A stretch of 29,192 nt of DNA from a virus (Duplodnaviria > Heunggongvirae > Uroviricota > Caudoviricetes): IMG/VR virus record IMGVR_UViG_2700989521_000016, one strand, 5' to 3'. Of this stretch, positions 5,026-15,258 are shown one piece after another (the first letter of the stretch is position 1; every line of letters begins with the position of its first letter). Below the pieces are notes generated by a model. It was not told the origin of the DNA. It searched no databases and worked only from the letters and a program-made list of their open reading frames with translations. The position numbers and the translations under genes were made by a program.

Positions 5026-5102
5026 TTACCGTTGAGGTAATAATTATGCGTATTTGGTTTGATGTCAATAGATATGAGTTGAAAAAATTACCTGCAAGGT
5101 AA
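5026..5102. promoter_or_regulatory. PL-like leftward early promoter region with two perfect TTACC-N5-GGTAA operator palindromes (5026-5040, 5088-5102)
   Basis: Perfect palindromes TTACCGTTGAGGTAA and TTACCTGCAAGGTAA read directly; minus-strand TTGACA (5063-5068) and CATAAT/TAATTA-like -10 candidates lie between and adjacent to them; exact -35/-10 spacing not resolved. Confidence 0.6.
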
Positions 5103-5113
5103 TTAGATGGACA

Positions 5114-5137
5114 ATAAAAAAGCCGCCAAATGGCGGC
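5114..5137 (-). terminator. Rho-independent terminator downstream of the repressor gene
   Basis: Stem GCCGCC/GGCGGC (5122-5137) with 4-nt loop, followed on the minus strand by a 6-nt U tract (complement of AAAAAA 5116-5121). Confidence 0.65.
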
Positions 5138-5159
5138 TTACTTACTGAAAAATATGATT

Positions 5160-5744
5160 TTATTGTTTGTTTTTTTCGTTCTGGTTGATGACAAATTCAA
5201 TGTAACTTTCGATCTTTGCTTTCTCGGTTTCAGGTAACAATGCGTAGCGCGAGCGGTCATAGTTGATAGTTGCAGGGTCGTGCGGGTGAATCAGTAGTTC
5301 ATATCCGTGACGCCCGAATGCAGATGCAACATTCTCCAGAGTGGAAATGGAAACGCTGACCTCATTGTTTAACAGGCGGCTGATTGTCACCTGGGCGACG
5401 CCGGATGCGCGGTGAAGTTTTCCCTGAGTTGAAAGGTCGCGGCTTTCACTCATCCAGCGTTCCAGGTTGTGAGCCGCCAGCTGACCAATGTCGCTTGGTC
5501 CAACAGGCTGAAAACCCTCCTGAGAAAGCGAGCGATCGATATCAAGCCAGTTACGTGGTTTATTGGCGGCAGCTTCAATTTTTCGCGCAACCTGGTCGCC
5601 GATAACCTTCTTGCCAAGAGCCCAGCGGTTTACCAGATTTGCCTGAGTTCCAAGTTTTTCTGCCATCCGCGTCTGAACACCATTGAATTCACGGTCGATC
5701 AAGTCGTTGAGATTTTGCCTGCGGACGTCCTGGATACTTTTCAT
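5160..5744 (-). CDS. Prophage repressor candidate with two tandem XRE-type helix-turn-helix domains and no recognisable S24 peptidase domain
   Basis: 194 aa; two HTH-like segments (MAEKLGTQANLVNRWALGKK...; ASGVAQVTISRLLNNEVSVSISTLENVASAFG); divergent from Cro-like gene with operator palindromes between them. Confidence 0.75.
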   Translation of the reverse strand: MKSIQDVRRQNLNDLIDREFNGVQTRMAEKLGTQANLVNRWALGKKVIGDQVARKIEAAANKPRNWLDIDRSLSQEGFQPVGPSDIGQLAAHNLERWMSESRDLSTQGKLHRASGVAQVTISRLLNNEVSVSISTLENVASAFGRHGYELLIHPHDPATINYDRSRYALLPETEKAKIESYIEFVINQNEKNKQ

Positions 5745-5799
5745 TTTCTGGAAAATCGCCTCATATATGAATCAGTAGATGATTCAATTTAAAGCAATA

Positions 5800-5862
5800 T
5801 TACCCAACAGGTAAATGCACCCCATAGGTAACTATCCTTGATTTTTGTTACCTTATGGGTGA
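5800..5862. promoter_or_regulatory. Tripartite operator region between repressor and Cro-like genes (sites 5800-5814 perfect, 5817-5831 imperfect, 5848-5862 9/10)
   Basis: TTACCCAACAGGTAA, GCACCCCATAGGTAA, TTACCTTATGGGTGA read directly; TTGATT -35-like hexamer at 5837-5842 upstream of the Cro-like gene. Confidence 0.65.
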
Positions 5863-5898
5863 ATATTTATTATCTGAAATAAATATCAGGCAATAGCT

Positions 5899-6129
5899 AT
5901 GAGCGATAACGGACATTTCGATTTCAAAAAGCACTGGCTTGCACTTACTCCGGATGAGCGTGAAGCCTTCGCACAGGAAGCCGGAACGACGAGTCACTAT
6001 ATCCAGACTCACTTAACAGGTAAGCGCAAAATGACAGGTAAAGTATTGATGAATGGGCTTTTTAAAGCCTGTAAAACAAGACAATGGCTGCGCTCAAAAG
6101 CAGAACTGGCATACTTCTTCTACTCATGA
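5899..6129 (+). CDS. Cro-like / YdaS-like small DNA-binding regulator
   Basis: 76 aa; position divergent from repressor; pattern resembles Cro/CI-type HTH (EAFAQEAGTTSHYIQTHLTGKRKM); weak SD. Confidence 0.65.
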   Translation: MSDNGHFDFKKHWLALTPDEREAFAQEAGTTSHYIQTHLTGKRKMTGKVLMNGLFKACKTRQWLRSKAELAYFFYS

Positions 6130-6150
6130 TATCCAGCCACAAACCTCTGT

Positions 6151-6173
6151 AGACCGCCATCCGGCGGTCTTTT
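6151..6173 (+). terminator. Rho-independent terminator after the Cro-like gene (tR1-like position)
   Basis: Stem GACCGCC/GGCGGTC (6151-6168, loop ATC) followed by TTTT (6169-6172). Confidence 0.65.
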
Positions 6174-6279
6174 CATATCTATTCGCACCTTAAAGGTAAT
6201 AAAAAACCAAATCTGGTTGATCTTTTTTTTGTGTCAGCACAAAATAACCGTAATCCCAATACTAATAACAGGGCTTACC

Positions 6280-6480
6280 ATGGAAATCATTACACGTATT
6301 GATGCCGCAAAGCGCGGACTTAAACGCTACTACACCGGAAAACCATGTAAGCACGGACATGACAGTGAACGCTGGGTTTACAACGGACACTGTGTTGAGT
6401 GCACCATGGAATCAAACCGTCGCATCAGGGCAGAGATTAAGCAGATCATGATTAATTCCTCCCCACAACATTCAAGCTGA
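6280..6480 (+). CDS. Small zinc-ribbon-like protein (66 aa) in the cII-equivalent position
   Basis: ATG at 6280; C-x-H-G-H ... C-x2-C motif (KPCKHGHDSERWVYNGHCVEC); the ORF track's longer version begins with TTG at 6217 and was not preferred; weak RBS. Confidence 0.45.
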   Translation: MEIITRIDAAKRGLKRYYTGKPCKHGHDSERWVYNGHCVECTMESNRRIRAEIKQIMINSSPQHSS

Positions 6481-6495
6481 TAGCGGAGATTAATC

Positions 6496-7311
6496 ATGAG
6501 CAGACATGCAACAGATTGGGCCTGGGAGACAGATCCAGGTAGCTCATCATTAAAGCTCATACTGCTCTCGATGGCTGACAGAGCCGATGAATATAACCTC
6601 TGCTACCCCAGCATAGAACGCCTCGTTAAAGACACTTGCCTGAATAAAAAAACCGTGCAGGCCGGGCTTATATCGCTCATGAAAATGGGGCTTATTTCAG
6701 ATACCGGAGAGAGAAAGGGAGCGACGAAAAGAGTGCGGGTTTTCTCTCTTAATATAACCAAAAACGGGAACATTAAAGGCAACCGGGAAGGGGGGAATGA
6801 ACCCGAAAACGGTAATGTTCCCGAAAACGGTAATATAACCAAAAACGGGATGTTGAATGATCCCAAAAACGGGATGTTGAATGATCCCAAAAACGGGATC
6901 CAGAACCAGTCATATAACCAGTCATTTAACCAAGAGAGGGAGAGCAGGACAAAAAACGGGAATTCTGTGCCTCATGACCCCGGCGCAAACAACGCCGTGA
7001 TGAATAACTTTGTTCCTCCTGGTGGGCCAGGGCAATTAGGCAAATTTGTCATGCATGAACAATGGCAGCCATCAGATGACTTTCTTCGGAAAAGCTCATT
7101 GCAGGGGATCTACCTGGACAGTCTGCCAACGGCACAGGAACTTGCAGAGTTCAGAATTTACTGGATGGCTGAGGGTAAGGCATACCATCAGGCACAGTGG
7201 GAGCAGAAGCTGGCAAGGCGGCTGCAGATTAGCAGACAGAAGCAATCAACATTACCTGATAACAACGTTCCGCACTGGAACAGCCCTGAAGCATGGGAGG
7301 ATTTCTTGTGA
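6496..7311 (+). CDS. Replication initiator protein (lambda O-like organisation: N-terminal HTH domain, iteron-encoded linker, C-terminal DnaT-like domain)
   Basis: 271 aa; sits directly upstream of and overlaps the P-like gene; internal iteron array encodes an NG-rich linker; GGAG SD upstream. Confidence 0.75.
   Translation: MSRHATDWAWETDPGSSSLKLILLSMADRADEYNLCYPSIERLVKDTCLNKKTVQAGLISLMKMGLISDTGERKGATKRVRVFSLNITKNGNIKGNREGGNEPENGNVPENGNITKNGMLNDPKNGMLNDPKNGIQNQSYNQSFNQERESRTKNGNSVPHDPGANNAVMNNFVPPGGPGQLGKFVMHEQWQPSDDFLRKSSLQGIYLDSLPTAQELAEFRIYWMAEGKAYHQAQWEQKLARRLQISRQKQSTLPDNNVPHWNSPEAWEDFL
6757..6900. repeat. Iteron array (candidate origin of replication) embedded in the replication initiator gene
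   Basis: Direct repeats read from sequence: CCCGAAAACGGTAAT at 6802-6816 and 6820-6834 (18-bp period); CCAAAAACGGGATGTTGAATGAT at 6839-6862 and 6863-6886 plus a partial third copy; related CCAAAAACGGGAA at 6757-6769. Confidence 0.7.
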
Positions 7312-8093
7312 ACAACGTTTTTACCGCAATACAAAACCGTGACGGAGAGGCCCTTTCTCGCATGTCAGGTTATGAGCATCAGTACACCAACAATGACAAC
7401 GTAGTGAACATGTCAGCAGAGAGGCTTGTTGATGCCCTTTTCAAACAGTTGAAACAACTGTTTCCGGCGGCAGTGGTAACCAACCTGAAGACGCCAGAGC
7501 AGGAAGTTGCTGCAAAACAGCAGTGGATTGCTGCGTTTGCCGAAGGGGGGATCCGAACCCGTAAACAGGTTTCTGCTGGTATGCGCCACGCCCGCGCCAG
7601 TGATTCTCCGTTCTGGCCGTCGCCAGGGCAATTCATCAAGTGGTGCAAAGACAGCAAGATGGTTCTTGGCGTCACCATTGACGATGTGATGACGGAGTTT
7701 CACCGGTACAGCAAGGAAAAAAGTTTATATCCTGGTGGTCCCGAAAGATTCCCGTGGCGGCATCCGGTTATGTACTGGGTCGTATGTGATACCCGCCGTG
7801 CAATGTATCAGCGCCAGCTTAGCGAGATTGAGGTTGAGAAACACGCGCGCAGGCTGCTCGATGATTGGGCGAAAAAGGTGGCTTCCGGACAGCAGATACC
7901 CGATCCGGTGATCAGCATACAGGCAAAGCCAGAACCCATGAGTACGCCTCCGGAAACAGGGAGAGACGTTTACCATCCACCAGGGCGAAGTTTCGGGTGC
8001 ATGCCTAACGCCGCCACCCTGGGGGGAATAACACCGGCGCAGTGGCTGATGGAGGAATACAGGCGGGGAAAGGCGGCAGGATTTATCAAGTAA
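7308..8093 (+). CDS. Replication protein P-like (DnaB helicase loader family)
   Basis: Motif SAGMRHARASDSPFWPSPGQFIKWCKD parallels lambda P (NAGMRVARRQNRPFLPSPGQFVAWCRE) from memory; GTG at 7308 overlaps the O-like stop (GTGA) with GGGAGG SD 7 nt upstream; alternative ATG start at 7293. Confidence 0.85.
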   Translation: MNNVFTAIQNRDGEALSRMSGYEHQYTNNDNVVNMSAERLVDALFKQLKQLFPAAVVTNLKTPEQEVAAKQQWIAAFAEGGIRTRKQVSAGMRHARASDSPFWPSPGQFIKWCKDSKMVLGVTIDDVMTEFHRYSKEKSLYPGGPERFPWRHPVMYWVVCDTRRAMYQRQLSEIEVEKHARRLLDDWAKKVASGQQIPDPVISIQAKPEPMSTPPETGRDVYHPPGRSFGCMPNAATLGGITPAQWLMEEYRRGKAAGFIK

Positions 8094-8098
8094 TACCA

Positions 8099-8118
8099 GC
8101 GCGATAGCGCATTTTTTT
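8099..8118 (+). terminator. Probable rho-independent terminator after the P-like gene
   Basis: Short GC stem (GCGC GATA GCGC, 8099-8110) followed by ATTTTTTT (8111-8118); stem is only 4 bp so strength uncertain. Confidence 0.45.
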
Positions 8119-8130
8119 ACGCCTCAATAA

Positions 8131-8207
8131 TTACCTTCTGGGTAATGAGATATTCTAAAATCTATTGATTTCGTGTCTTATGTGGTTTTTAATTACCTCA
8201 GGGGTAA
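8131..8207. promoter_or_regulatory. Promoter region of the nin-like operon with two perfect TTACC-N5-GGTAA palindromes (8131-8145, 8193-8207)
   Basis: TTACCTTCTGGGTAA and TTACCTCAGGGGTAA read directly; TTGATT (8165-8170) then 17 bp then TTTAAT (8188-8193) looks like a sigma70 promoter; second palindrome overlaps the -10/RBS of the gene starting at 8211. Confidence 0.6.
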
Positions 8208-8210
8208 ATC

Positions 8211-8555
8211 ATGAGAAAGCAGATACAGGCTCTTGGTCGACTCAAAACAGGCCAGATGAACAAAACAGAATCTGCGTATTGCCAGCACCTTGAGCAGCGT
8301 AAACGTGCAGGGGAAATCGCCTGGTATCGGTTCGAGGGTATCAAGCTGCGGCTGGCTGACAACACGTTCTATACGCCAGATTTCGCTGTGATGCTCGCCA
8401 CTGGTGAGATGGAACTGCATGAAGTGAAAGGTTTCTGGACCGACGACGCTAGGGTGAAAACCAAAGTCGCCGCAGATCAGTATCCGTTCCGAATCATCGG
8501 GGTAACGGTTAAGCCAAAGAAAGCAGGTGGCGGCTGGAATATCGAAGAGTTCTGA
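8211..8555 (+). CDS. Hypothetical protein, possible PD-(D/E)XK-fold nuclease-like
   Basis: 114 aa; pattern TPDFAV...ELHEVKG suggestive of a D...E-x-K motif; inference only. Confidence 0.6.
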   Translation: MRKQIQALGRLKTGQMNKTESAYCQHLEQRKRAGEIAWYRFEGIKLRLADNTFYTPDFAVMLATGEMELHEVKGFWTDDARVKTKVAADQYPFRIIGVTVKPKKAGGGWNIEEF

Positions 8556-8616
8556 ATCGACGATCTTTTTAGTTATCAATGTAATCAATAAGTTATGTGG
8601 ATAAGCGAGGGTAAAG

Positions 8617-9120
8617 ATGGAAAGTAATATCAAAGGGTTAGTTTCCGCCGGGCATGAGATGGCTTCGGAACTGAAAGCAGAATGTGGGGCCGTTGATATG
8701 CGTAGTGTGGCAAAGCTGATCAGCAATTTGGCAACGCAATTGGAAGTGCAACTGGTGCGTGCTAATGCGCTGGCCGAAGACCACCAGAGAGCGATTGAGT
8801 CAATTAAGCAGGCTGATGCAGCTGTTAAGTTGGCACACGAGAAGTTTTCGGCGCTGGCAGCGGAGAATGCAAAGCTGAAGAAGTTCTGCAAAGACGCTGC
8901 ATTCGATGCCGATTACGAAGCAGAGCTAGGTATGGAGAGAGGTGGATTCAGTGATGCACTTAACGAAATAAAAACCCCAGCCACCGACGCCTTCCTGGCT
9001 GAAGTGCGGGCTCAGGGTGTGGAGATGCTCTACGCAAGCAGAGCGGCTCAGTGGGCTGATGAATTGTTAGCTGAGCTTAATGAATTCGCCACTCAGCTTC
9101 GCGAAGGAGGTGCAGCATGA
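8617..9120 (+). CDS. Hypothetical protein (167 aa), Ala/Glu-rich, probably coiled-coil
   Basis: ORF with GAGGGT SD; no family recognised. Confidence 0.6.
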   Translation: MESNIKGLVSAGHEMASELKAECGAVDMRSVAKLISNLATQLEVQLVRANALAEDHQRAIESIKQADAAVKLAHEKFSALAAENAKLKKFCKDAAFDADYEAELGMERGGFSDALNEIKTPATDAFLAEVRAQGVEMLYASRAAQWADELLAELNEFATQLREGGAA

Positions 9121-9350
9121 GCAATCAGATTAAGCCTGCCAGAAGAATTGATGCAGATGGTAATGCCAGAGACGTCGACAACGCTTACGAGGAGGGAATC
9201 TACGCCGCCGTAATAGGCCTCGAGGTAACTGACAATCCGTATTCAACAGATGATCCACTCAACCGTAAGCTTTGGCTAAAGGCTTTCGCTGGGGTCAAGA
9301 GTGGAAAGATCAGAAGCGCCGCCCAGTTACGCAAAGGAGGCAACCAGTGA
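9117..9350 (+). CDS. Hypothetical protein (77 aa)
   Basis: ATG overlaps previous stop (ATGA); GGAGG SD upstream. Confidence 0.55.
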   Translation: MSNQIKPARRIDADGNARDVDNAYEEGIYAAVIGLEVTDNPYSTDDPLNRKLWLKAFAGVKSGKIRSAAQLRKGGNQ

Positions 9351-10120
9351 GCAAGATTGATTATCAGGCACTGCGTGAAGCGGCAGAAAAAGCAACGTGT
9401 GGTGAGTGGTCGCTCGAATATGGAGAGGGCCGATTTGATGGTGATGATGCGCTAATTAATCGCGAGGCTGCTGGATATATTCCCATTTGCAGAATTGAAG
9501 GAGCGCATCCTGAAAGCGGTTTCGATGAAGATTTCCAAATGGAACAGCAGGCCAATGCTGAATTCATCGCTGCAGCCAATCCGGCTACCGTGCTGGCACT
9601 GCTGGATGAACGGGAAAGAAACCAGCAATACATCAAACGCCGCGACCAGGAGAACGAGGATATTGCGCTAACGGTAGGGAAGCTGAGAGTTGAGCTGGAA
9701 GCCGCAGAGAATAACCTCATTGATAGTGAATGCCATGTTGCTGAACTGGAAGAAGCGCTACGCAATAAGCAGGCGTTACTTGAAGCATCAGAGAAGCGCA
9801 ACGCAAAATTACAAAGCGAGAATGCATACATCCGCAACCGGTACAAAGAACTGGACCTATTAATCGGGAAAAACATTCTGGTCATGCAGGCTGCCATTAT
9901 CGAATGGCAATCGACTGGCGACGCTAAAAGCGGACTAGCATGGATTTATAACACACTGTTTGGCCCAGGCGAATTGCCGGACGAATCTGAGAAAAATGCT
10001 CAGGCCTACTTTAATCGCAAATATGCACCGATTGACGAAAAGCTTATGGCGCTTCACAAGTGGTTTTGGGAACAAAGTGAAGCCGAGCGCGCCGCTGGCA
10101 TTCGCATCAAAGGAGAGTGA
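9347..10120 (+). CDS. Ead/Ea22-like protein (tentative), coiled-coil central region
   Basis: GTG at 9347 overlaps the previous stop (GTGA) with AAGGAGG SD 6 nt upstream; N-terminal IDYQALREAAEKATCGEW motif recalls the ead/Ea22-like family from memory; the ORF track's upstream extension from 9272 overlaps the preceding gene and was not used. Confidence 0.6.
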   Translation: MSKIDYQALREAAEKATCGEWSLEYGEGRFDGDDALINREAAGYIPICRIEGAHPESGFDEDFQMEQQANAEFIAAANPATVLALLDERERNQQYIKRRDQENEDIALTVGKLRVELEAAENNLIDSECHVAELEEALRNKQALLEASEKRNAKLQSENAYIRNRYKELDLLIGKNILVMQAAIIEWQSTGDAKSGLAWIYNTLFGPGELPDESEKNAQAYFNRKYAPIDEKLMALHKWFWEQSEAERAAGIRIKGE

Positions 10121-10121
10121 T

Positions 10122-10331
10122 ATGGCTATCGCTGCAAGTTACACCATGCATCTCTATTGTGATTGCCTCCAGTGTACAGATGGCAAATATAAGTCGCCAG
10201 ACTTCGGTGAGTATATAGGTACGTCATGGGCTGGCTGTGCAAAAGAGGCGCGCAAGGATGGCTGGCGAATAAGCAAAGACAAAACGCGTGCTTTTGCGCC
10301 CGGGCATAAAGTTTTGAGGATTAACAAATGA
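10122..10331 (+). CDS. Small Cys-containing hypothetical protein (69 aa)
   Basis: ATG at 10122 with AGGAGA SD; C-x-C-x2-C cluster (HLYCDCLQCTDG); the track's longer ORF from 9960 overlaps the upstream gene. Confidence 0.5.
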   Translation: MAIAASYTMHLYCDCLQCTDGKYKSPDFGEYIGTSWAGCAKEARKDGWRISKDKTRAFAPGHKVLRINK

Positions 10332-11017
10332 CCACTATAACCAAAGAGCGACTGATGACAATCAAGGAGTGGCGCGAAACATACGGACCTGGTAGCAACG
10401 TTGTGCTGCCAGCAGAAGAAGCGGAAGAACTGGCACGAATTGCACTGGCATCACTGGGAGCAGAACCAGTTGCTTATATTTTCAAACATCCGGCCGGGAA
10501 ATTATTCTGGGCTTTAACGGATGAAAGCAATAAAGAGCAAGCGGACGTTATTCCTGTTTATGCTGCCGCGCCTGCGTCGGTTGTGCCGGATAATGCATCA
10601 GAGCCTCTTGCTTATGCTTACAAAGAGCTTACGCCTGAGATTATGCGCAACCATTTAGCTGTATTCGAGCGATATGGAATAGCCCCAAACGATAGCTCTA
10701 CCACAATTCAGGCACTGCGAATCGCGCTGGATGGCATAGAGCGGAGCGACGCCATGCTTCATGGTGCCGAACCTGTAAGCCAAACTTACAAGTTGAACCA
10801 GCTATCGGGCAACTCTCCGGTAACTCCGGATGATTGGATAAGCTGTAGTGAGCAAATGCCGGACGACGCGCAGTGGTGCGTAGTGAACACAGAATACGGG
10901 TATTACGTGCAATGCTGGTCTGAAGGTCAAGGGTGGCTTGGTGATGATATCAGCATCCCTGAATGCGATGTAATCAATTGGATGCCGCTACCAGAACCGC
11001 CGCAGGAGGTGAAGTAA
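10328..11017 (+). CDS. DUF551-domain protein (tentative)
   Basis: 229 aa; C-terminal pattern DDWISCSEQMP...W...NWMPLPEPP resembles DUF551 from memory; ATG overlaps previous stop (ATGA). Confidence 0.6.
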   Translation: MTTITKERLMTIKEWRETYGPGSNVVLPAEEAEELARIALASLGAEPVAYIFKHPAGKLFWALTDESNKEQADVIPVYAAAPASVVPDNASEPLAYAYKELTPEIMRNHLAVFERYGIAPNDSSTTIQALRIALDGIERSDAMLHGAEPVSQTYKLNQLSGNSPVTPDDWISCSEQMPDDAQWCVVNTEYGYYVQCWSEGQGWLGDDISIPECDVINWMPLPEPPQEVK

Positions 11018-11385
11018 TGGACTATTCACAGTTAAGTGATTTTGAAATTAACAGAATGGTAGGAGACATAATTTTTAAAGGCCTTTGGGCATGTAAACCG
11101 GAAACATCAGGGAATAACACCAACAAATGGTATTACGGAAATGCTGATACAACTTTTGAGCCATTAAACCCTTTACCTGACTACTGCAATGATCCGAGCG
11201 CCTCATGGCCTGTAATCGCAAAACATCAGATCAGCATATGTGCATACGAAAGAAATAATCCTGGAATGAAGAATGAATATTGGTGGGAGGCGGATAGATT
11301 TTGTGAATTTATTACCATAGACAACAACCCACTCCGCGCCGCCATGATTGTATTTCTCATGATGCAGGAAAATCAGAATGGCTAA
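11017..11385 (+). CDS. Hypothetical protein (122 aa), possibly NinX/DUF2591-like
   Basis: ATG at 11017 overlaps previous stop (TAATG); GGAGG SD; N-terminus MDYSQLSDFEINRMVG; family assignment from memory only. Confidence 0.55.
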   Translation: MDYSQLSDFEINRMVGDIIFKGLWACKPETSGNNTNKWYYGNADTTFEPLNPLPDYCNDPSASWPVIAKHQISICAYERNNPGMKNEYWWEADRFCEFITIDNNPLRAAMIVFLMMQENQNG

Positions 11386-11716
11386 ATCATCAGCAGAGCG
11401 CAAAGCCGCTCAGAGAGCCAGACAAGCTGCATCTGGTGTGCGTAAGCTGGAAATTGTGCTTGATGCTCAGGAAATTGAAATGCTGGAGCGTAACTGTGCC
11501 ACGCGTCGCCCCGGGCGTGCGCCTTACGAATTTGGTGAGTATATAGCGTTACTGATCCGCCAGGATGATGCACGCGTGCGCGGGCGTATAAAATCGATCA
11601 GCAGAAAACGTTGCGGTAAGTGCGGCGAGAGAGTTCCAGTTAATTCATGCCCGTGTAATGGTGACTCGCAATGCTGGGTGACTAAAGGCTGGCATGAAAC
11701 GAAATTAATAGTGTGA
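11378..11716 (+). CDS. Hypothetical protein (112 aa) with C-terminal Cys cluster, last gene before terminator and packaging genes
   Basis: Basic N-terminus, RCGKCGERVPVNSCPCNGDSQCW zinc-binding-like cluster; could be a regulator, but no family recognised. Confidence 0.55.
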   Translation: MAKSSAERKAAQRARQAASGVRKLEIVLDAQEIEMLERNCATRRPGRAPYEFGEYIALLIRQDDARVRGRIKSISRKRCGKCGERVPVNSCPCNGDSQCWVTKGWHETKLIV

Positions 11717-11724
11717 CATGTCAC
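11713..11724. repeat. Perfect 12-bp palindrome GTGACATGTCAC, copy 1
   Basis: Read directly; overlaps the stop codon of the gene ending at 11716; identical copy at 13978-13989. Confidence 0.8.
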
Positions 11725-11765
11725 GAGTAGATTATGCATGATGAATTTGATGGGTTTTGAATACT

Positions 11766-11791
11766 GCCGCCAACTATGGCGGCTTTATTTT
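11766..11791 (+). terminator. Rho-independent terminator separating early/middle genes from the packaging genes
   Basis: Stem GCCGCCA/TGGCGGC (11766-11783, loop ACTA) followed by TTTATTTT (11784-11791). Confidence 0.75.
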
Positions 11792-11802
11792 GCATGATAC
11801 TA

Positions 11803-11835
11803 TTACCACAACGGTAACTATTACCACGGTGGTTA
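11803..11835. promoter_or_regulatory. Two TTACC-N5-GGTAA-type palindromes directly upstream of the small terminase start (11803-11817 perfect, 11821-11835 9/10)
   Basis: TTACCACAACGGTAA and TTACCACGGTGGTTA read directly; second site abuts the terS ATG at 11835. Confidence 0.6.
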
Positions 11836-12431
11836 TGATGCCTGCTGAACCTAAAACCTATAAACGCAAATCAACGCAATTTAAGCCACTAACAGCAATG
11901 CAGGAGGCTTATTGCCAGTCATACATCAAAACGCCTGAAAACCAGACTCAGGCAGCGATTAACGCAGGATTCTCCCCAAATACAGCGGCAGTTAAAGCCA
12001 GTGTCATGATGCGCGATGAACGCATTCAAAAACGGATTGCCGAGTTGATGGAGGAGCGCAACAAACGAATGCGCATCAGTGCTGATTACGTTCTCATGCG
12101 CCTGGTGGAGATCGACCAGATGGACGTGATCGACATCCTCAACGACGATGGGAGCCTTAAACCAATCTGTGAGTGGCCGAAAATTTGGCGCACTACGCTT
12201 AGTGGCTTTGATCTGTCATCGACCATCATGAACATGAACGAGGATTCGATAGAGACAATCCTCAAAAAAATTAAATGGCCTGACAAGGTGAAGAACCTTG
12301 AGCTGATTGGTAAGCATGTTGATGTCAACGCGTTCAAAGAACGTCTGGATGTTAATGTGAATGTGACAATTGCTGATCGCATAGCAGCAGCCAGGAAGCG
12401 ACTCAAAGAACGTCAGGATGGTAATCACTGA
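11835..12431 (+). CDS. terS: Terminase small subunit
   Basis: ATG at 11835 (MMPAEPKTYKRKSTQFKPLTAMQEAYCQ...), downstream of terminator; position immediately upstream of the large terminase; the track's 11757 start lies inside the terminator and was not used. Confidence 0.7.
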   Translation: MMPAEPKTYKRKSTQFKPLTAMQEAYCQSYIKTPENQTQAAINAGFSPNTAAVKASVMMRDERIQKRIAELMEERNKRMRISADYVLMRLVEIDQMDVIDILNDDGSLKPICEWPKIWRTTLSGFDLSSTIMNMNEDSIETILKKIKWPDKVKNLELIGKHVDVNAFKERLDVNVNVTIADRIAAARKRLKERQDGNH

Positions 12432-12460
12432 CAGATACAGCGTTATCTCCTGAAGAGCAG

Positions 12461-13903
12461 TTGATCGAGGATATTGCAGGGTTCACTCACGATCCGCTTG
12501 GCTATGCCCTCTATGCGTTCCCGTGGGGGGAAGAGGGGACTGAATTAGCACATGCCACCGGTCCACGTCAGTGGCAGGCTGATGCGTTCCGAGAGATACG
12601 TGATCACCTGCAGAATCCAGAGACGCGCTATCAGCCGCTTATGCTGGCACGTGCTTCGGGTCACGGTATTGGTAAATCCGCATTCATCTCAATGCTGATC
12701 AACTGGGGCATGTCCACTTGCGAGGATTGTAAGGTCGTGGTGACCGCCAACACCGACAACCAGCTACGAACGAAGACTTGGCCGGAAATTATCAAGTGGT
12801 CGAACCTTGCTATCACGAAAGACTGGTTTACCTGTACCGCTACCGCGATGTACAGCAATGACCCTGGGCACGACAAGCGGTGGCGAGCTGACGCAATCCC
12901 CTGGTCTGAGCACAACACTGAGGCATTCGCCGGACTACACAACGAGCGCAAACGCATCATCGTGGTATTCGATGAAGCGTCGAACATTGCGGATCTGGTG
13001 TGGGAAGTTGCCGAGGGTGCGCTAACGGACGAAGACACTGAGATTATCTGGGTGGCGTTCGGAAACCCGACGCGTAACACCGGGCGTTTCCGTGAATGTT
13101 TCCGCAAGTACAAACACCGCTGGAAGTGTGCGCAGATTGACAGCCGGACGGTGGAAGGCACTAACAAACAGCAGTTGCAGAAATGGGTTGATGACTACGG
13201 GGAAGACAGCGACTTCGTTAAAATCCGTGTGCGCGGCATATTCCCGGATGCATCTGAATTGCAGTTTATCCCTACTGGCCTTACTGACGAGGCAATGAAA
13301 CGGGTGGTAACCGCTGCGCAGGTTGCACATGCTCCGGTGATAATCGGCGTTGACCCGGCATACTCCGGCGTTGATGACGCTGTGATATACCTGCGGCAGG
13401 GGCTGCACAGTAAGGTGCTGTGGACTGGCAACAAGACCACTGACGATCTGATTATGGCGAAGCGTATCGCTGACTTTGAAGACCAGTACCAGGCTGACGC
13501 AGTGTTCATCGACTTCGGTTACGGAACTGGTCTGAAGTCAATCGGTGACGGCTGGGGTCGTACATGGCAACTTGTTCCGTTCGGTGGCGCGTCTACTGAC
13601 CCGCAGATGCTCAACAAGCGTGGGGAGATGTTCATCTCATGCAAGACATGGCTGAGGCTGGGTGGCATGCTTGATGACCAGGAAACAGCGGACGACCTGT
13701 CGGCGGCTGAGTACAAAGTTCGAGTGGACGGTAAAATCGTTATCGAACCGAAGGAAGATATCAAGGAGCGGCTTGGGCGTTCGCCGGGTAAAGGCGATGC
13801 GCTACTGCTGACGTTTGCGTTCCCTGTGTCGAAGCGTCTGCGAATTCCCGGGCAGCAGAACCAGCAAGGCAAGGCCATCACAGATTACGATCCCTATGCT
13901 TAA
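12461..13903 (+). CDS. terL: Terminase large subunit (ATPase plus nuclease domains)
   Basis: 480 aa; Walker A-like ASGHGIGKS; VVFDEASN Walker B-like; TTG start at 12461 as in ORF track (in-frame stop at 12422-12424 limits upstream extension). Confidence 0.85.
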   Translation: MIEDIAGFTHDPLGYALYAFPWGEEGTELAHATGPRQWQADAFREIRDHLQNPETRYQPLMLARASGHGIGKSAFISMLINWGMSTCEDCKVVVTANTDNQLRTKTWPEIIKWSNLAITKDWFTCTATAMYSNDPGHDKRWRADAIPWSEHNTEAFAGLHNERKRIIVVFDEASNIADLVWEVAEGALTDEDTEIIWVAFGNPTRNTGRFRECFRKYKHRWKCAQIDSRTVEGTNKQQLQKWVDDYGEDSDFVKIRVRGIFPDASELQFIPTGLTDEAMKRVVTAAQVAHAPVIIGVDPAYSGVDDAVIYLRQGLHSKVLWTGNKTTDDLIMAKRIADFEDQYQADAVFIDFGYGTGLKSIGDGWGRTWQLVPFGGASTDPQMLNKRGEMFISCKTWLRLGGMLDDQETADDLSAAEYKVRVDGKIVIEPKEDIKERLGRSPGKGDALLLTFAFPVSKRLRIPGQQNQQGKAITDYDPYA

Positions 13904-13953
13904 TCCGTTGGAGGGGATAATGCTGCTGATATCCTCTGGCGAGGATAAAACAA

Positions 13954-13973
13954 AGCCAGCTCATCGGCTGGCT
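13954..13973. terminator. Bidirectional terminator-like hairpin between terL and the convergent moron gene
   Basis: Stem AGCCAGC/GCTGGCT with loop TCATCG; A-rich upstream (U tract on minus strand) and GTTTGTG downstream on plus strand. Confidence 0.55.
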
Positions 13974-13977
13974 GTTT

Positions 13978-13989
13978 GTGACATGTCAC
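13978..13989. repeat. Perfect 12-bp palindrome GTGACATGTCAC, copy 2
   Basis: Read directly; identical to 11713-11724, shared flanks extend the match to tGTGACATGTCACg. Confidence 0.8.
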
Positions 13990-13993
13990 GGTG

Positions 13994-14350
13994 TTATTGC
14001 TCGCTTAGCTTCTGCTTCAGCAAGTAACCTTCGAGCATCCAGATTTTGTTTACAGCATTCTGCCGGGCAATCTTCCGACCAATTTCTGCATCAAAGTTTT
14101 CCTGGCTTGCACAGGCACTCTCTCCGGTGACGGTGAAGCCATTCTTCAGCACCAGTACGCAGAAAGTCAGGAGGTCTGTAGAGTTATGCGCTGTCCATGA
14201 ATCGCCAACGCCCATATTGGCGGCACGAATGCCGTCATAAGCAGTAAAGAAATGCTCTTCAAGAATGATGCTTTCGATATATTGAGGCGTAACTCGCGGT
14301 GCCGTTTTGCCTTTCTCAACGATTTCTTTTTCGATTTGCTGGTCGTTCAT
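13994..14350 (-). CDS. Moron-like hypothetical protein (118 aa) on the opposite strand to the late genes; possibly Gp49/Sf6 gp66-like family (tentative)
   Basis: ATG at 14348-14350 with AAGGTGAG SD; flanked by terminator hairpins on both sides; motif NGFTVTGESACASQENFDAEIGRKIA recalls a conserved phage family from memory. Confidence 0.7.
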   Translation of the reverse strand: MNDQQIEKEIVEKGKTAPRVTPQYIESIILEEHFFTAYDGIRAANMGVGDSWTAHNSTDLLTFCVLVLKNGFTVTGESACASQENFDAEIGRKIARQNAVNKIWMLEGYLLKQKLSEQ

Positions 14351-14361
14351 AATCTCACCTT

Positions 14362-14385
14362 AAAAAAATGCCCGGCGAACCGGGC
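14362..14385 (-). terminator. Strong rho-independent terminator between the tRNA and the moron gene
   Basis: Minus strand reads GCCCGG-UUCG-CCGGGC followed by A + UUUUUUU; U tract ends 12 nt before the moron start codon. Confidence 0.75.
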
Positions 14386-14547
14386 GAACTGGAAGCAATG
14401 AGTTCTTCCTTCCGTGGATGTACGGGTTTACAGCATGAAGTCATCGCAATGGCGTCCTGCTGTAAAAAGTGCGGTGATAGTCCTTCAAGGGAAACCATCA
14501 CCGCCAAGCACTGGAACTTCTGGCATCACGGTCCTTAGGCGTGATTC

Positions 14548-14624
14548 TGGCGTGGCATGCAGGATTCGAACCTGCGACCAACCGCTTAGAAGGCGGTTGC
14601 TCTGTCCGACTGAGCTAATGCCAC
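14548..14624 (-). tRNA. tRNA-Arg (anticodon UCU), phage-borne
   Basis: Manually folded 77-nt cloverleaf on minus strand: acceptor GTGGCAT/ATGCCAC, D-arm GCTC/GAGC, anticodon stem ACCGC/GCGGT with loop CTTCTAA (anticodon TCT), T-arm GCAGG-TTCGAAT-CCTGC identical to E. coli argU as recalled, discriminator G and encoded CCA. Confidence 0.8.
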
Positions 14625-14946
14625 AACGCTGAGAGCACTTAGCCTGTTAAGGCACCACACTTTGTCGCGGCTCCATAAATGCTCTCATCGTTGTACCCTC
14701 GTCTCTTCCGAGGCGTCACACCGAATCGCCGGGATGGTGAATCCCCGTGCGCGGAATAAAACCGCTCGACTTGCACATTCCGGCTACCTGGTTCGTTTGC
14801 CCGAGCAAGGGAGGGTGCCCCTTAAACGTATCCAGGCCGCTATCGGCGCATGTGCCATACGCCGTACTGCTCAAAATAAAAGCTCACTCCACCTGTTCAA
14901 TTTAACGACAAGCCAGTCAGGTTAGTAACCGGAATGAACTTTTTGG

Positions 14947-14961
14947 TTACCTGAAAGGTAA
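14947..14961. promoter_or_regulatory. Perfect TTACC-N5-GGTAA palindrome at the head of the virion-gene operon
   Basis: TTACCTGAAAGGTAA read directly, right half-site runs into GGTAATAAT (possible -10); a second GGTAATAAT at 15017-15025. Confidence 0.6.
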
Positions 14962-15051
14962 TAATTCGTGCGTTAAATGTCAACCGACTACGATAAATAA
15001 ATCATATGTGGTTAAATTGGTAATAATTTAATTGCGTACGGAGTCATTGAT

Positions 15052-15258
15052 ATGTGCATGGGTAGCTCACCATCAGTGCCTGCAACACCAGAAGTTCAGG
15101 CAGCACCACAGGAGCAGGATGCCGCCGTTGTTGATGCCCGCGACGAAGAAACTCGTCGCCGTCGCGCTGCTGCTGGTCGTAGTTCTACGCTGCTTACCGG
15201 TTCTCAGGGCGACACATCAACCGCTAATACCAGCGGTAAAACGCTACTTGGTCAGTAA
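15052..15258 (+). CDS. Small hypothetical protein (68 aa) preceding the portal gene
   Basis: ATG at 15052 with CGGAG SD; Ala/Pro/Arg-rich; no family recognised. Confidence 0.5.
   Translation: MCMGSSPSVPATPEVQAAPQEQDAAVVDARDEETRRRRAAAGRSSTLLTGSQGDTSTANTSGKTLLGQ

Follow-up and report, generated by a model that had tools for sequence, protein, structure and literature searches.

Organization of the locus

The window (the whole stretch of 29,192 nucleotides analysed here) is a phiV10/ε15-like podovirus prophage of the genus Uetakevirus, integrated at guaA in Escherichia coli and carried by approximately 360 of 5426 complete E. coli genomes (roughly 7%). The features that bear on its regulation are collected in Table 1. 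A leftward repressor gene (rep) and a rightward gene for a Cro-like protein diverge from one intergenic region, and the palindrome TTACC-N5-GGTAA, whose longer consensus form is ATTACC-N5-GGTAAT, recurs along the window.

Table 1. Genes, palindromic sites (predicted operators) and promoters in the window.
Feature	Position	Strand	Remarks
Perfect palindrome	5026..5040		Adjoins −10 and start site of leftward early promoter; half-sites invariant in 6 genomes
Leftward early promoter, TTGACA-17-AATTAT	5040..5068	-	Promoter scan, 10/12 matches
Perfect palindrome	5088..5102		Upstream of leftward −35; 62 bp from 5026
Rep repressor gene, 194 aa	5160..5744	-	Probable binder of the palindrome
Perfect palindrome	5800..5814		Divergent rep/cro-like region
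Degenerate palindrome, 2 mismatches	5817..5831		17 bp from 5800; left half GCACC
One-mismatch palindrome	5848..5862		Between −35 (TTGATT, 5839-5844) and −10 of rightward cro-like promoter
Cro-like protein, 76 aa	5899..6129	+	phrog_35 'transcriptional repressor'; possible second reader of the palindromes
Weak operator-like site, 2 mismatches	6185..6199		Past cro-like terminator, ahead of replication genes
Perfect palindrome	8131..8145		Upstream of nin-region promoter
nin-region promoter, TTGATT-17-TTTAAT	8165..8193	+	Read by eye, backed by conservation
Perfect palindrome	8193..8207		On nin promoter −10 and start site; 62 bp from 8131
Perfect palindrome	11803..11817		Between strong terminator (11766-11783) and terS
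One-mismatch operator-like site	11821..11835		Covers terS ribosome-binding site; terS start 11838
tRNA-Arg(UCU)	14548..14624	-	Likely product of leftward unit starting at the 14947 palindrome
Perfect palindrome	14947..14961		105 bp before start codon (15052) of first virion-operon gene
Candidate leftward promoter, TTGACA-17-TACCTT	14955..14983	-	−10 inside the 14947 palindrome; points at tRNA-Arg; inferred from sequence
28-bp block invariant in 6 genomes	15004..15031	+	Extended −10-like TGgTTAAAT (15009-15017) and GGTAAT half-site (15019-15024)

Palindromic sites and their promoters

The seven perfect copies in the window are exactly those named in the original prediction, and none is found in 100 dinucleotide-preserving shuffles; the accompanying expectation of about 0.03 under uniform base composition is arithmetically correct (29192/4^10). 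When one mismatch is allowed, the total rises to 9 sites against 0.34 expected, and only 5848 and 11821 are gained. At two mismatches, 26 sites are found in the window against 7 expected, so the sites at 5817 and 6185, each with two mismatches and the left half GCACC, are not significant alone. Four listed copies had been called near-perfect; this description fits 5848 and 11821, with one mismatch each, while 5817 and 6185 owe their place to synteny. Their credibility comes from alignment to relatives, in which the matching sites are perfect or have one mismatch: 5817 aligns with position 33358 of ε15, its counterpart being a perfect site in ε15, SPC32H and BUCT711, and one-mismatch sites syntenic to 6185 are found in phiV10 (33112), Tyrion (35365) and BUCT711 (6032). 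L006, an annotated prophage with 99.8% identity to the window, carries 12 sites (8 perfect and 4 with one mismatch), and all 12 lie within non-coding DNA, which makes up 8.6% of the element, provided that terS begins at the conserved ATG (11838) and not at an upstream TTG. The window sites are likewise non-coding, as had been claimed. In the window the sites fall into six regions; the whole prophage has at least eight such regions, with sites ahead of nearly every transcription unit.

At the leftward early promoter, GTCAATAG is invariant in 6 genomes, and the 62-63 bp spacing of the two palindromes is kept in phiV10, Tyrion, ε15, SPC32H and BUCT711. Similarly, the 62-bp spacing of the nin pair is invariant across 6 genomes; the nin-region promoter itself does not meet the strict rule of the promoter scan. 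We infer that at both loci alike a promoter is sandwiched by two operators 62 bp apart. At the 5848 site in the divergent rep/cro-like region, TTGATTTTT is invariant. No acceptable sigma-70 promoter is visible in the sequence upstream of terS; the candidate TTGCAT ... TAACTA was rejected, as its spacer would have to be 19 bp.

The distance from the 14947 palindrome to the gp3 start codon is exactly 105 bp in six genomes. The invariant 28-bp block downstream of this palindrome is probably the core of the virion-operon promoter. Its 27-nt core (15005-15031) occurs once in phiV10, and a search for the late-promoter motif elsewhere in phiV10 recovered only a shorter TATrTGGTT-like core. The best candidate for a rightward start site is approximately 70 bp downstream of the centre of the 14947 palindrome, a long way for repression by simple occlusion. 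On the opposite strand, a tRNA-Arg promoter possibly lies within the palindrome, and the alignment shows that GTCAA and its distance to the palindrome are invariant. The 14947 site overlaps this candidate leftward promoter no less well than it would serve the rightward virion operon. A terminator-like hairpin lies at 14504-14471, and an Rfam search of 13900-15100 with gathering and E-value thresholds returned only the tRNA, leaving the 320-nt leader without a known RNA family.

Conservation of the sites

In the GenBank record of ε15 (AY150271.2), seven copies of the same palindrome, all carrying ATTACC-N5-GGTAAT, are annotated as protein_bind 'repressor / lysogeny' at syntenic positions, namely upstream of terS, gp3/portal, the tailspike gene and nin, with three more downstream of the repressor gene. 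A sequence scan of ε15 additionally finds rep/cro and holin sites and the second nin site, which the record lacks. The source study for the ε15 repressor-binding sites is reportedly that of Kropinski et al. (2007, Virology 369:234). Besides the palindrome itself, ε15 and the present prophage share gene order, repressor family and the sites at terS, gp3/portal, the leftward early region and nin; they differ in that ε15 has three leftward operators versus two here, and two perfect rep/cro operators versus one. The dispersed pattern is therefore an already annotated, genus-wide feature of ε15-like phages, confirmed here but ordinary. Text searches of the literature for the operator consensus or half-sites with phage repressors returned nothing relevant, and a search for Uetakevirus repressor binding sites returned unrelated papers only.

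Alignment placed syntenic intergenic sites at the leftward early, rep/cro, nin, terS and gp3/portal positions. Such sites are present in every Rep-bearing genome examined, including phages of E. coli, Enterobacter, Klebsiella and Salmonella and prophage loci of Superficieibacter, Erwinia, Klebsiella, Citrobacter and Scandinavium. Among 6 genomes from four host genera, 94% of half-site columns are invariant, compared with 20% of the central N5 and 42% of other intergenic columns, a footprint that fits a dimeric DNA reader. It had been foreseen that the motif might turn out to be a common host sequence; approximately 109 kb of flanking host DNA contains no perfect site, versus 8 in 40 kb of prophage. 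Among the genomes examined, the motif tracks a Rep with the helix NLVNRW and is missing without it: no motif was found at loci near distant homologues of the Rep N-terminus with a different helix, nor in Sodalis phiSG1 (portal 57% identical, without Rep), which is a weak control since phiSG1 is a mosaic, decayed element.

Rep, the Cro-like protein and Ant

Rep (WP_000836290.1) matches the SPC32H Rep (PDB 5D50) over its full length (aa 1-190, E 4e-42). The Pfam search returned only HTH families (HTH_3 at aa 106-147 and, below threshold, a Cro-like HTH at aa 21-61) and no Peptidase_S24 autocleavage domain. Five clade representatives share 69 invariant positions, and the NLVNRW helix is invariant among them. 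Identity to the ε15 repressor, gp38, is 42-43% overall and is higher in the N-terminal domain (53%) than in the C-terminal domain (38%). The SPC32H Rep-Ant switch is reportedly that of Kim and Ryu (2013, J Virol) and Kim et al. (2016, PNAS), with PDB entries 5D50 and 5D4Z; according to the latter study, the N-terminal domain of SPC32H Rep reportedly reads DNA. Two reports describe SPC32H Rep as a tetramer that binds palindromic sites and is freed by Ant (PMC9638917, PMC9986798), and in the second its C-terminal part is a tetramerisation and antirepressor-binding domain (PMC9986798). The repressor had been predicted to contain tandem HTHs: the HTH_3 assignment stands, whereas the N-terminal HTH is sub-threshold and the C-terminal part corresponds in the homologue to tetramerisation and Ant binding.

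Rep is identical to the ORF21 repressor of ZX5, whose overexpression reduced holin transcripts by 99.97% and left no free phage (PMC9782041); this repression could be indirect. In L006, a region beyond the end of the window encodes a homologue of Ant (84% identical) and contains a perfect LexA box, CTGTATGAATATACAG.

Proposed mechanism and alternatives

Based on the annotation, the homology and the co-occurrence presented above, it is highly likely that the palindrome is the operator of Rep, a non-LexA-like maintenance repressor of the SPC32H/ε15 type that would directly silence all lytic units. The single-protein regulon originally proposed for the immunity, nin-like, terminase and virion operators agrees with both the comparative evidence and the ε15 annotation. 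One N-terminal HTH of Rep would recognize one half-site. The SPC32H tetramer is described as having two DNA-binding pairs (PMC9638917), so Rep may hold two palindromes at once; such a grip fits the recurring pairs, which are spaced by 17-18 bp (rep/cro, terS) or by 62 bp, approximately six helical turns (leftward early, nin). Within each 62-bp pair, a sigma-70 promoter would lie between an operator upstream of the −35 and an operator on the −10 and start site. During lysogeny, Rep would directly silence the leftward early, cro-like and replication, nin, terS, virion and tRNA-Arg units and, outside the window, the tailspike and lysis genes, with no regulatory cascade. Looping between operators may contribute, and the assignment of promoters to the late sites is tentative. 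Upon induction, the small LexA-controlled antirepressor Ant would strip Rep from the DNA.

The sites could instead be read mainly, or also, by the Cro-like protein, which would then dampen every unit as a repressor of the lytic phase. Its match to phrog_35, its HTH (AGTTSHYIQ-HLT, invariant across four host genera) and the fact that operators are common to Cro and repressor in lambda-type switches count in its favour. It is conserved as strongly as Rep and is present with the motif in every genome examined, and for this reason the comparative data cannot tell the two proteins apart as binder. However, the ε15 record gives the sites to the repressor, the paired sites suit a Rep tetramer with two DNA-binding pairs, and overexpression of Rep alone silenced the lysis genes in ZX5. 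This alternative is judged improbable; joint use of the rep/cro sites by both proteins is quite likely, and the Cro-like protein as sole binder is unlikely. A host transcription factor conserved in Enterobacterales and recruited by the phage could account for the same motif in phages of four host genera, but it is a very remote candidate, given the count in flanking host DNA and the co-occurrence of the motif with an NLVNRW-helix Rep; we know of no E. coli regulator with an ATTACC-N5-GGTAAT consensus. There is practically no chance that the inverted repeats work at the RNA level, whether as small hairpins, as RNase III sites or as terminators. Although they lie in untranslated regions, and RNase III sites are annotated nearby in the ε15 record, their stems are just 5 bp, the 'loop' is free to vary, and several sites are upstream of the accompanying promoter and hence not transcribed from it. 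The hairpin reading was rejected because the half-sites are nearly invariant without compensatory changes.

As regards the late copies at terS and the virion operon, there is a small but real chance that they are auxiliary anchors, which raise the local concentration of Rep, form loops with the immunity region or stop read-through rather than repress a promoter. The lack of a good sigma-70 promoter at terS, where the sites stand between the strong terminator and the start codon, and the long distance from 14947 to the rightward start-site candidate speak for this role. Against it stand the exact spacing to gp3 in six genomes, the overlap of the 14947 palindrome with the conserved TTGACA-17-TACCTT and the similar operator-plus-promoter modules ahead of the tailspike and holin genes of L006. 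This role is a variant of direct repression by Rep and does not contradict it.

Comparison with other phages

Among the closest known systems is SPC32H, whose Rep is a full-length homologue, also without a Peptidase_S24 domain, and which shares the operator motif, its positions and an Ant with a LexA box (in L006). The C-terminal domain of Rep is only approximately 38% identical, versus 84% for Ant; the ant region of the present prophage lies beyond the window, and binding and tetramerisation of the present allele are predicted by homology. In lambda, cI operators are found in two regions only, the late genes depend on the Q cascade, and the cI protein is RecA-cleavable. The divergent repressor/cro region with three operators, the leftward operator set and the cooperative oligomeric repressor on paired sites resemble lambda OR/OL, where cI forms loops over a long range. 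In contrast to lambda-type cI, Rep lacks the C-terminal S24 autocleavage domain (Pfam), and the operators are not confined to two immunity promoters but extend over the regions counted above.

The P1 repressor C1 acts through many operators across the genome on many operons, including late functions, and antirepressors control induction; one repressor with dispersed operators, direct operon control and antirepressor-controlled induction are thus common to both systems. The proteins are unrelated, and P1, a plasmid prophage, has asymmetric 17-bp operators, unlike the symmetric palindromes here. The stoperators of L5/L1 are asymmetric and orientation-dependent, lie mostly in transcribed regions and block elongation, whereas the present sites are symmetric and at promoters. 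One report describes stoperators as many repressor sites across the genome, beyond the immunity region (PMC1934351).

Significance

The value of the site map is mainly for annotation, as records of phiV10-type prophages carry no operator features, and experiments published in 2022 on the identical repressor did not map where it binds (PMC9782041). No new biological question is opened, since P1, L5 and ε15 already provide examples of dispersed operator regulons. The mapped sites are ready targets for reporter or ChIP work.

The map explains how a single protein may keep the entire element silent with no late-gene cascade. With at least ten operators across every transcription unit, immunity specificity could not be swapped as a cassette, unlike in lambdoid phages. 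We tentatively suggest, as a doubtful extension, that the whole genus is locked to one operator and one helix, so that repressors only 42% identical would cross-repress and, relatedly, that the 14947 site governs a divergent pair formed by the tRNA-Arg(UCU) promoter and the extended −10 virion promoter. If so, the supply of a rare-codon tRNA would be tied directly to the lysis-lysogeny switch, and a single operator would be shared by phages whose hosts include E. coli, Salmonella, Klebsiella, Enterobacter, Citrobacter and Erwinia.

Identity and gene content of the element

The region covered by the window shares 96-98% identity with the Escherichia phages phiV10, vB_EcoP_ZX5, PAS61 and phiv142-3; with Salmonella phage ε15 the figure is about 80%. 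These identities make the element a prophage of the genus Uetakevirus (ε15-like podoviruses). E. coli WP3-S18-ESBL-09 carries a copy, 99.8% identical, that adjoins guaA, and at least 80% of the window's first 25 kb is present in 359 of the 5426 complete E. coli genomes.

Features of the element and copies of the operator in the window
Feature	Position	Strand or direction	Remark
Integrase	1-1251
Recombination genes		leftward
Repressor (Rep)	5160-5744	-	194 aa
Cro-like gene	5899-6129		76 aa
DnaT-like and P-like replication genes
Iteron-like repeats	6757-6962		inside DnaT-like gene
Short hairpin with T-run	8100-8120
nin-like block	from 8211		first gene DUF1064
Gene for 112-aa protein	11378-11716		last gene before terS
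Strong terminator	11766-11783
terS	11838-12431		then terL
Gp49-family gene		leftward
tRNA-Arg(UCU)	14548-14624	-
Virion operon	from 15052
Perfect operators	5026, 5088, 5800, 8131, 8193, 11803, 14947		TTACC-N5-GGTAA
One-mismatch operators	5848, 11821
Two-mismatch operator-like sites	5817, 6185		GCACC for TTACC
Leftward early promoter	5068-5040	-	TTGACA-17-AATTAT
-35 of candidate leftward promoter	14983-14978	leftward	TTGACA
tRNA-Arg leader, about 320 nt	within 14471-14983	-
13-bp hairpin terminator	14504-14471		after tRNA-Arg(UCU)
Invariant 28-bp block	15004-15031		ATATGTGGTTAAATTGGTAATAATTTAA

The iteron-like repeats (CCMAAAACGGGAW; five to seven copies, two of them exact 24-mers) are probably the replication origin, by analogy with lambda O. 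The 112-aa protein, whose N-terminus is basic and may be a ribbon-helix-helix and whose C-terminus is rich in Cys (CGKCG...CPCNGDSQC), matches phrog_536 'transcriptional regulator' (E 6e-54), has no match in Pfam, NCBIfam or PDB, and may be a late-gene regulator.

Operator copies in the window

The seven perfect copies of the palindrome in the original prediction were recovered exactly by a motif search of the window, and none occurs in 100 dinucleotide-preserving shuffles. Of four copies described as near-perfect, 5848 and 11821 stand, since allowing one mismatch gives nine sites against 0.34 expected. The other two carry two mismatches each and are not significant on their own, because at up to two mismatches the window holds 26 matches against 7 expected; they gain credibility from their alignment with perfect or one-mismatch sites of relatives. 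Read with its flanks, the consensus is ATTACC-N5-GGTAAT. The claim that the sites are all intergenic also holds: in the near-identical prophage, as annotated, the 12 sites (eight perfect and four with one mismatch) all fall within the 8.6% of the element that is non-coding.

Conservation among relatives and the probable binder

A scan of complete genomes took in every one of the four Rep clades found among the sequenced phages, with phiV10, Tyrion (Enterobacter), BUCT711 (Klebsiella) and the two Salmonella phages ε15 and SPC32H. In each genome there are 8-11 perfect copies, or 13-18 when one mismatch is allowed, against about 0.5 expected. The copies are syntenic: a pair 62-63 bp apart downstream of rep, two or three sites between rep and cro, a weak site after the cro terminator, a pair exactly 62 bp apart before the nin block, a pair 18 bp apart before terS, a single site exactly 105 bp before the gp3 start codon, one or two sites in the ant/tailspike intergenic region, and a TCACC variant before the holin genes. 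Searching with the Rep alignment brought up another six prophage loci in Enterobacterales, and these repeat the arrangement. Four alignments, each of six genomes from four host genera, show invariance at 94% of half-site columns, compared with 20% of the central five and 42% of other intergenic columns. Conservation of this kind is what a dimeric, sequence-specific reader of DNA leaves behind; an RNA hairpin, being tolerant of compensatory change, would leave another pattern.

Rep matches SPC32H Rep (PDB 5D50) over its full length (E 4e-42). Its description as a tandem-HTH repressor is half right: Pfam detects HTH_3 at aa 106-147, while the Cro/YdaS-like HTH at aa 21-61 is sub-threshold, and no S24 peptidase domain is found in Rep. 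Compared with ε15 Rep, the N-terminal 72 residues are 53% identical and the C-terminal domain 38%, and across five aligned clade representatives the putative recognition helix, NLVNRW, does not vary. Kim et al. (2016) reportedly identified the N-terminal domain of SPC32H Rep as the DNA reader. Two papers describe SPC32H Rep as a tetramer on palindromic sites, with each DNA-binding pair drawn from different dimers and with tetramerisation and Ant binding both assigned to a C-terminal domain; the small antirepressor Ant breaks the tetramer (PMC9638917; PMC9986798).

A host motif spread at similar density, which would have refuted the original prediction, is not seen in the roughly 109 kb of chromosome flanking the prophage, where no perfect copy occurs; one-mismatch copies there are near chance, slightly high in one 50-kb stretch, and those that were placed lie inside genes. 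Sodalis phage phiSG1, whose portal is 57% identical, has neither a Rep match nor a motif copy. No copy lies near five distant homologues of the Rep N-terminus (Paraburkholderia, Hydrogenovibrio, Thiomicrospira), and in both of those translated NLVNRW is replaced by other helices. From these controls, the motif tracks the DNA-reading helix of Rep, the probable binder of the palindrome. The HTH of the Cro-like protein is also invariant, and this protein co-occurs with the motif everywhere; the comparative data fit Rep and the Cro-like protein alike and cannot separate them as reader. A lambda-type cI switch is ruled out, since Rep lacks an S24 domain and the operators are not confined to the immunity region. 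Dispersed-operator regulons like this one are found in P1 (C1) and mycobacteriophage L5.

Promoter architecture

At the leftward early promoter, located by promoter scan, operator 5026 abuts the -10 and start site, and operator 5088 is placed beyond the -35 on its upstream side. On the plus strand this arrangement recurs at the nin promoter (operator 8131, ATCTATTGATT, TTTAAT, operator 8193), and the centre-to-centre distance of 62 bp at both pairs is kept in all six genomes. This distance, about six helical turns, would place both sites on one face of the DNA, and a Rep tetramer with two DNA-binding pairs could clamp the promoter between them. In the rep/cro region, site 5848 is flanked by an invariant TTGATTTTT and by the rightward promoter's -10, with 5800 and 5817 towards the repressor gene. 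The hairpin GCGC-N4-GCGCATTTTTTTAC, which separates the replication genes from the first nin operator, is invariant in the six genomes; the phiV10 record annotates it as a terminator, which the terminator scan did not call because the stem is only 4 bp.

The two terS sites fill the 45 bp between the strong terminator and the start codon, where no acceptable sigma-70 promoter was found. To the right of 14947 the sequence is nearly invariant up to the gp3 start codon, and to the left it diverges with indels. The 28-bp block is invariant in the six genomes, more conserved than the flanking genes, and contains an extended -10-like TGgTTAAAT and a GGTAAT half-site. It also contains the inverted repeat TTAAATT/AATTTAA. 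Shorter relatives of the block (TATrTGGTTwwwAA) are present at 8179-8193 in the window, at the nin promoter, and at two places in L006, an annotated E. coli locus whose 99.8%-identical prophage runs past the window end: ahead of the tailspike gene (about 36493-36515) and ahead of the holin genes (about 42286-42298). A candidate leftward promoter has its -10, TACCTT, inside operator 14947, and its -35 and spacing are invariant; it points through a structured leader (fold z -2.4) to tRNA-Arg and then the hairpin terminator. The leader is partly conserved (ACATGTGCCATAyGCCGTAC) and matches no Rfam family, and ε15 has no tRNA at this position. Operator 14947 may thus govern a divergent pair, the putative tRNA-Arg unit leftward and the virion operon rightward.

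Induction and the integrase-proximal site

Beyond the window end, the near-identical prophage encodes an 85-aa protein 84% identical to SPC32H Ant, with a perfect LexA box (CTGTATGAATATACAG) upstream (L006 36394-36464 region) and a further Rep operator (L006 36450-36464) after it, facing the tailspike gene. Together with a Rep that lacks an autocleavage domain, this matches the SPC32H switch, in which SOS reportedly removes LexA, Ant is made and Ant releases Rep (as ascribed to Kim and Ryu, 2013); induction here would follow the same steps. Ant is far more conserved than the C-terminal domain of Rep (38%), its reported target. In ZX5, free phage disappeared and holin transcripts fell by 99.97% when the identical repressor was overexpressed (PMC9782041), which is consistent with direct repression of late units but no proof of it.

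All six genomes keep a one-mismatch variant, TTACCyTAAAGGTAT, 43 bp ahead of the integrase start and just outside the window's left edge (L006 4513-4527). The ε15 record annotates an integrase-binding site that overlaps it, so the variant may serve as an Int arm site instead of a Rep operator.

Relation to existing annotation

The reading of a single phage protein acting across transcription units is supported and is not new. The ε15 record (GenBank AY150271.2) carries seven protein_bind features labelled 'repressor / lysogeny', upstream of terS, gp3/portal, the tailspike gene and a nin-region gene and, in three cases, downstream of the repressor gene; all seven extracted sequences contain ATTACC-N5-GGTAAT. 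The regulon is therefore already known in the type phage of the genus. Our scan of ε15 adds four perfect sites missing from that record (two at rep/cro, one at 62 bp from the nin site already annotated and one upstream of the holin operon). Neither the RefSeq record of phiV10 nor the annotated E. coli prophage has operator features, and the 2022 study of ZX5, with the identical repressor, only speculated on action at 'PL' (PMC9782041).

On every defining feature tested, the element is a member of the ε15/SPC32H Rep regulon, with binding by Rep predicted. Apparently unrecorded in the sequence records examined are the conserved operator-promoter-operator cassette with its 62-bp spacing, the possible Rep-controlled tRNA-Arg promoter, and the sharing of one operator sequence across hosts and repressors only 42% identical. 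The last point suggests that immunity specificity has become frozen through the dispersal of the sites.
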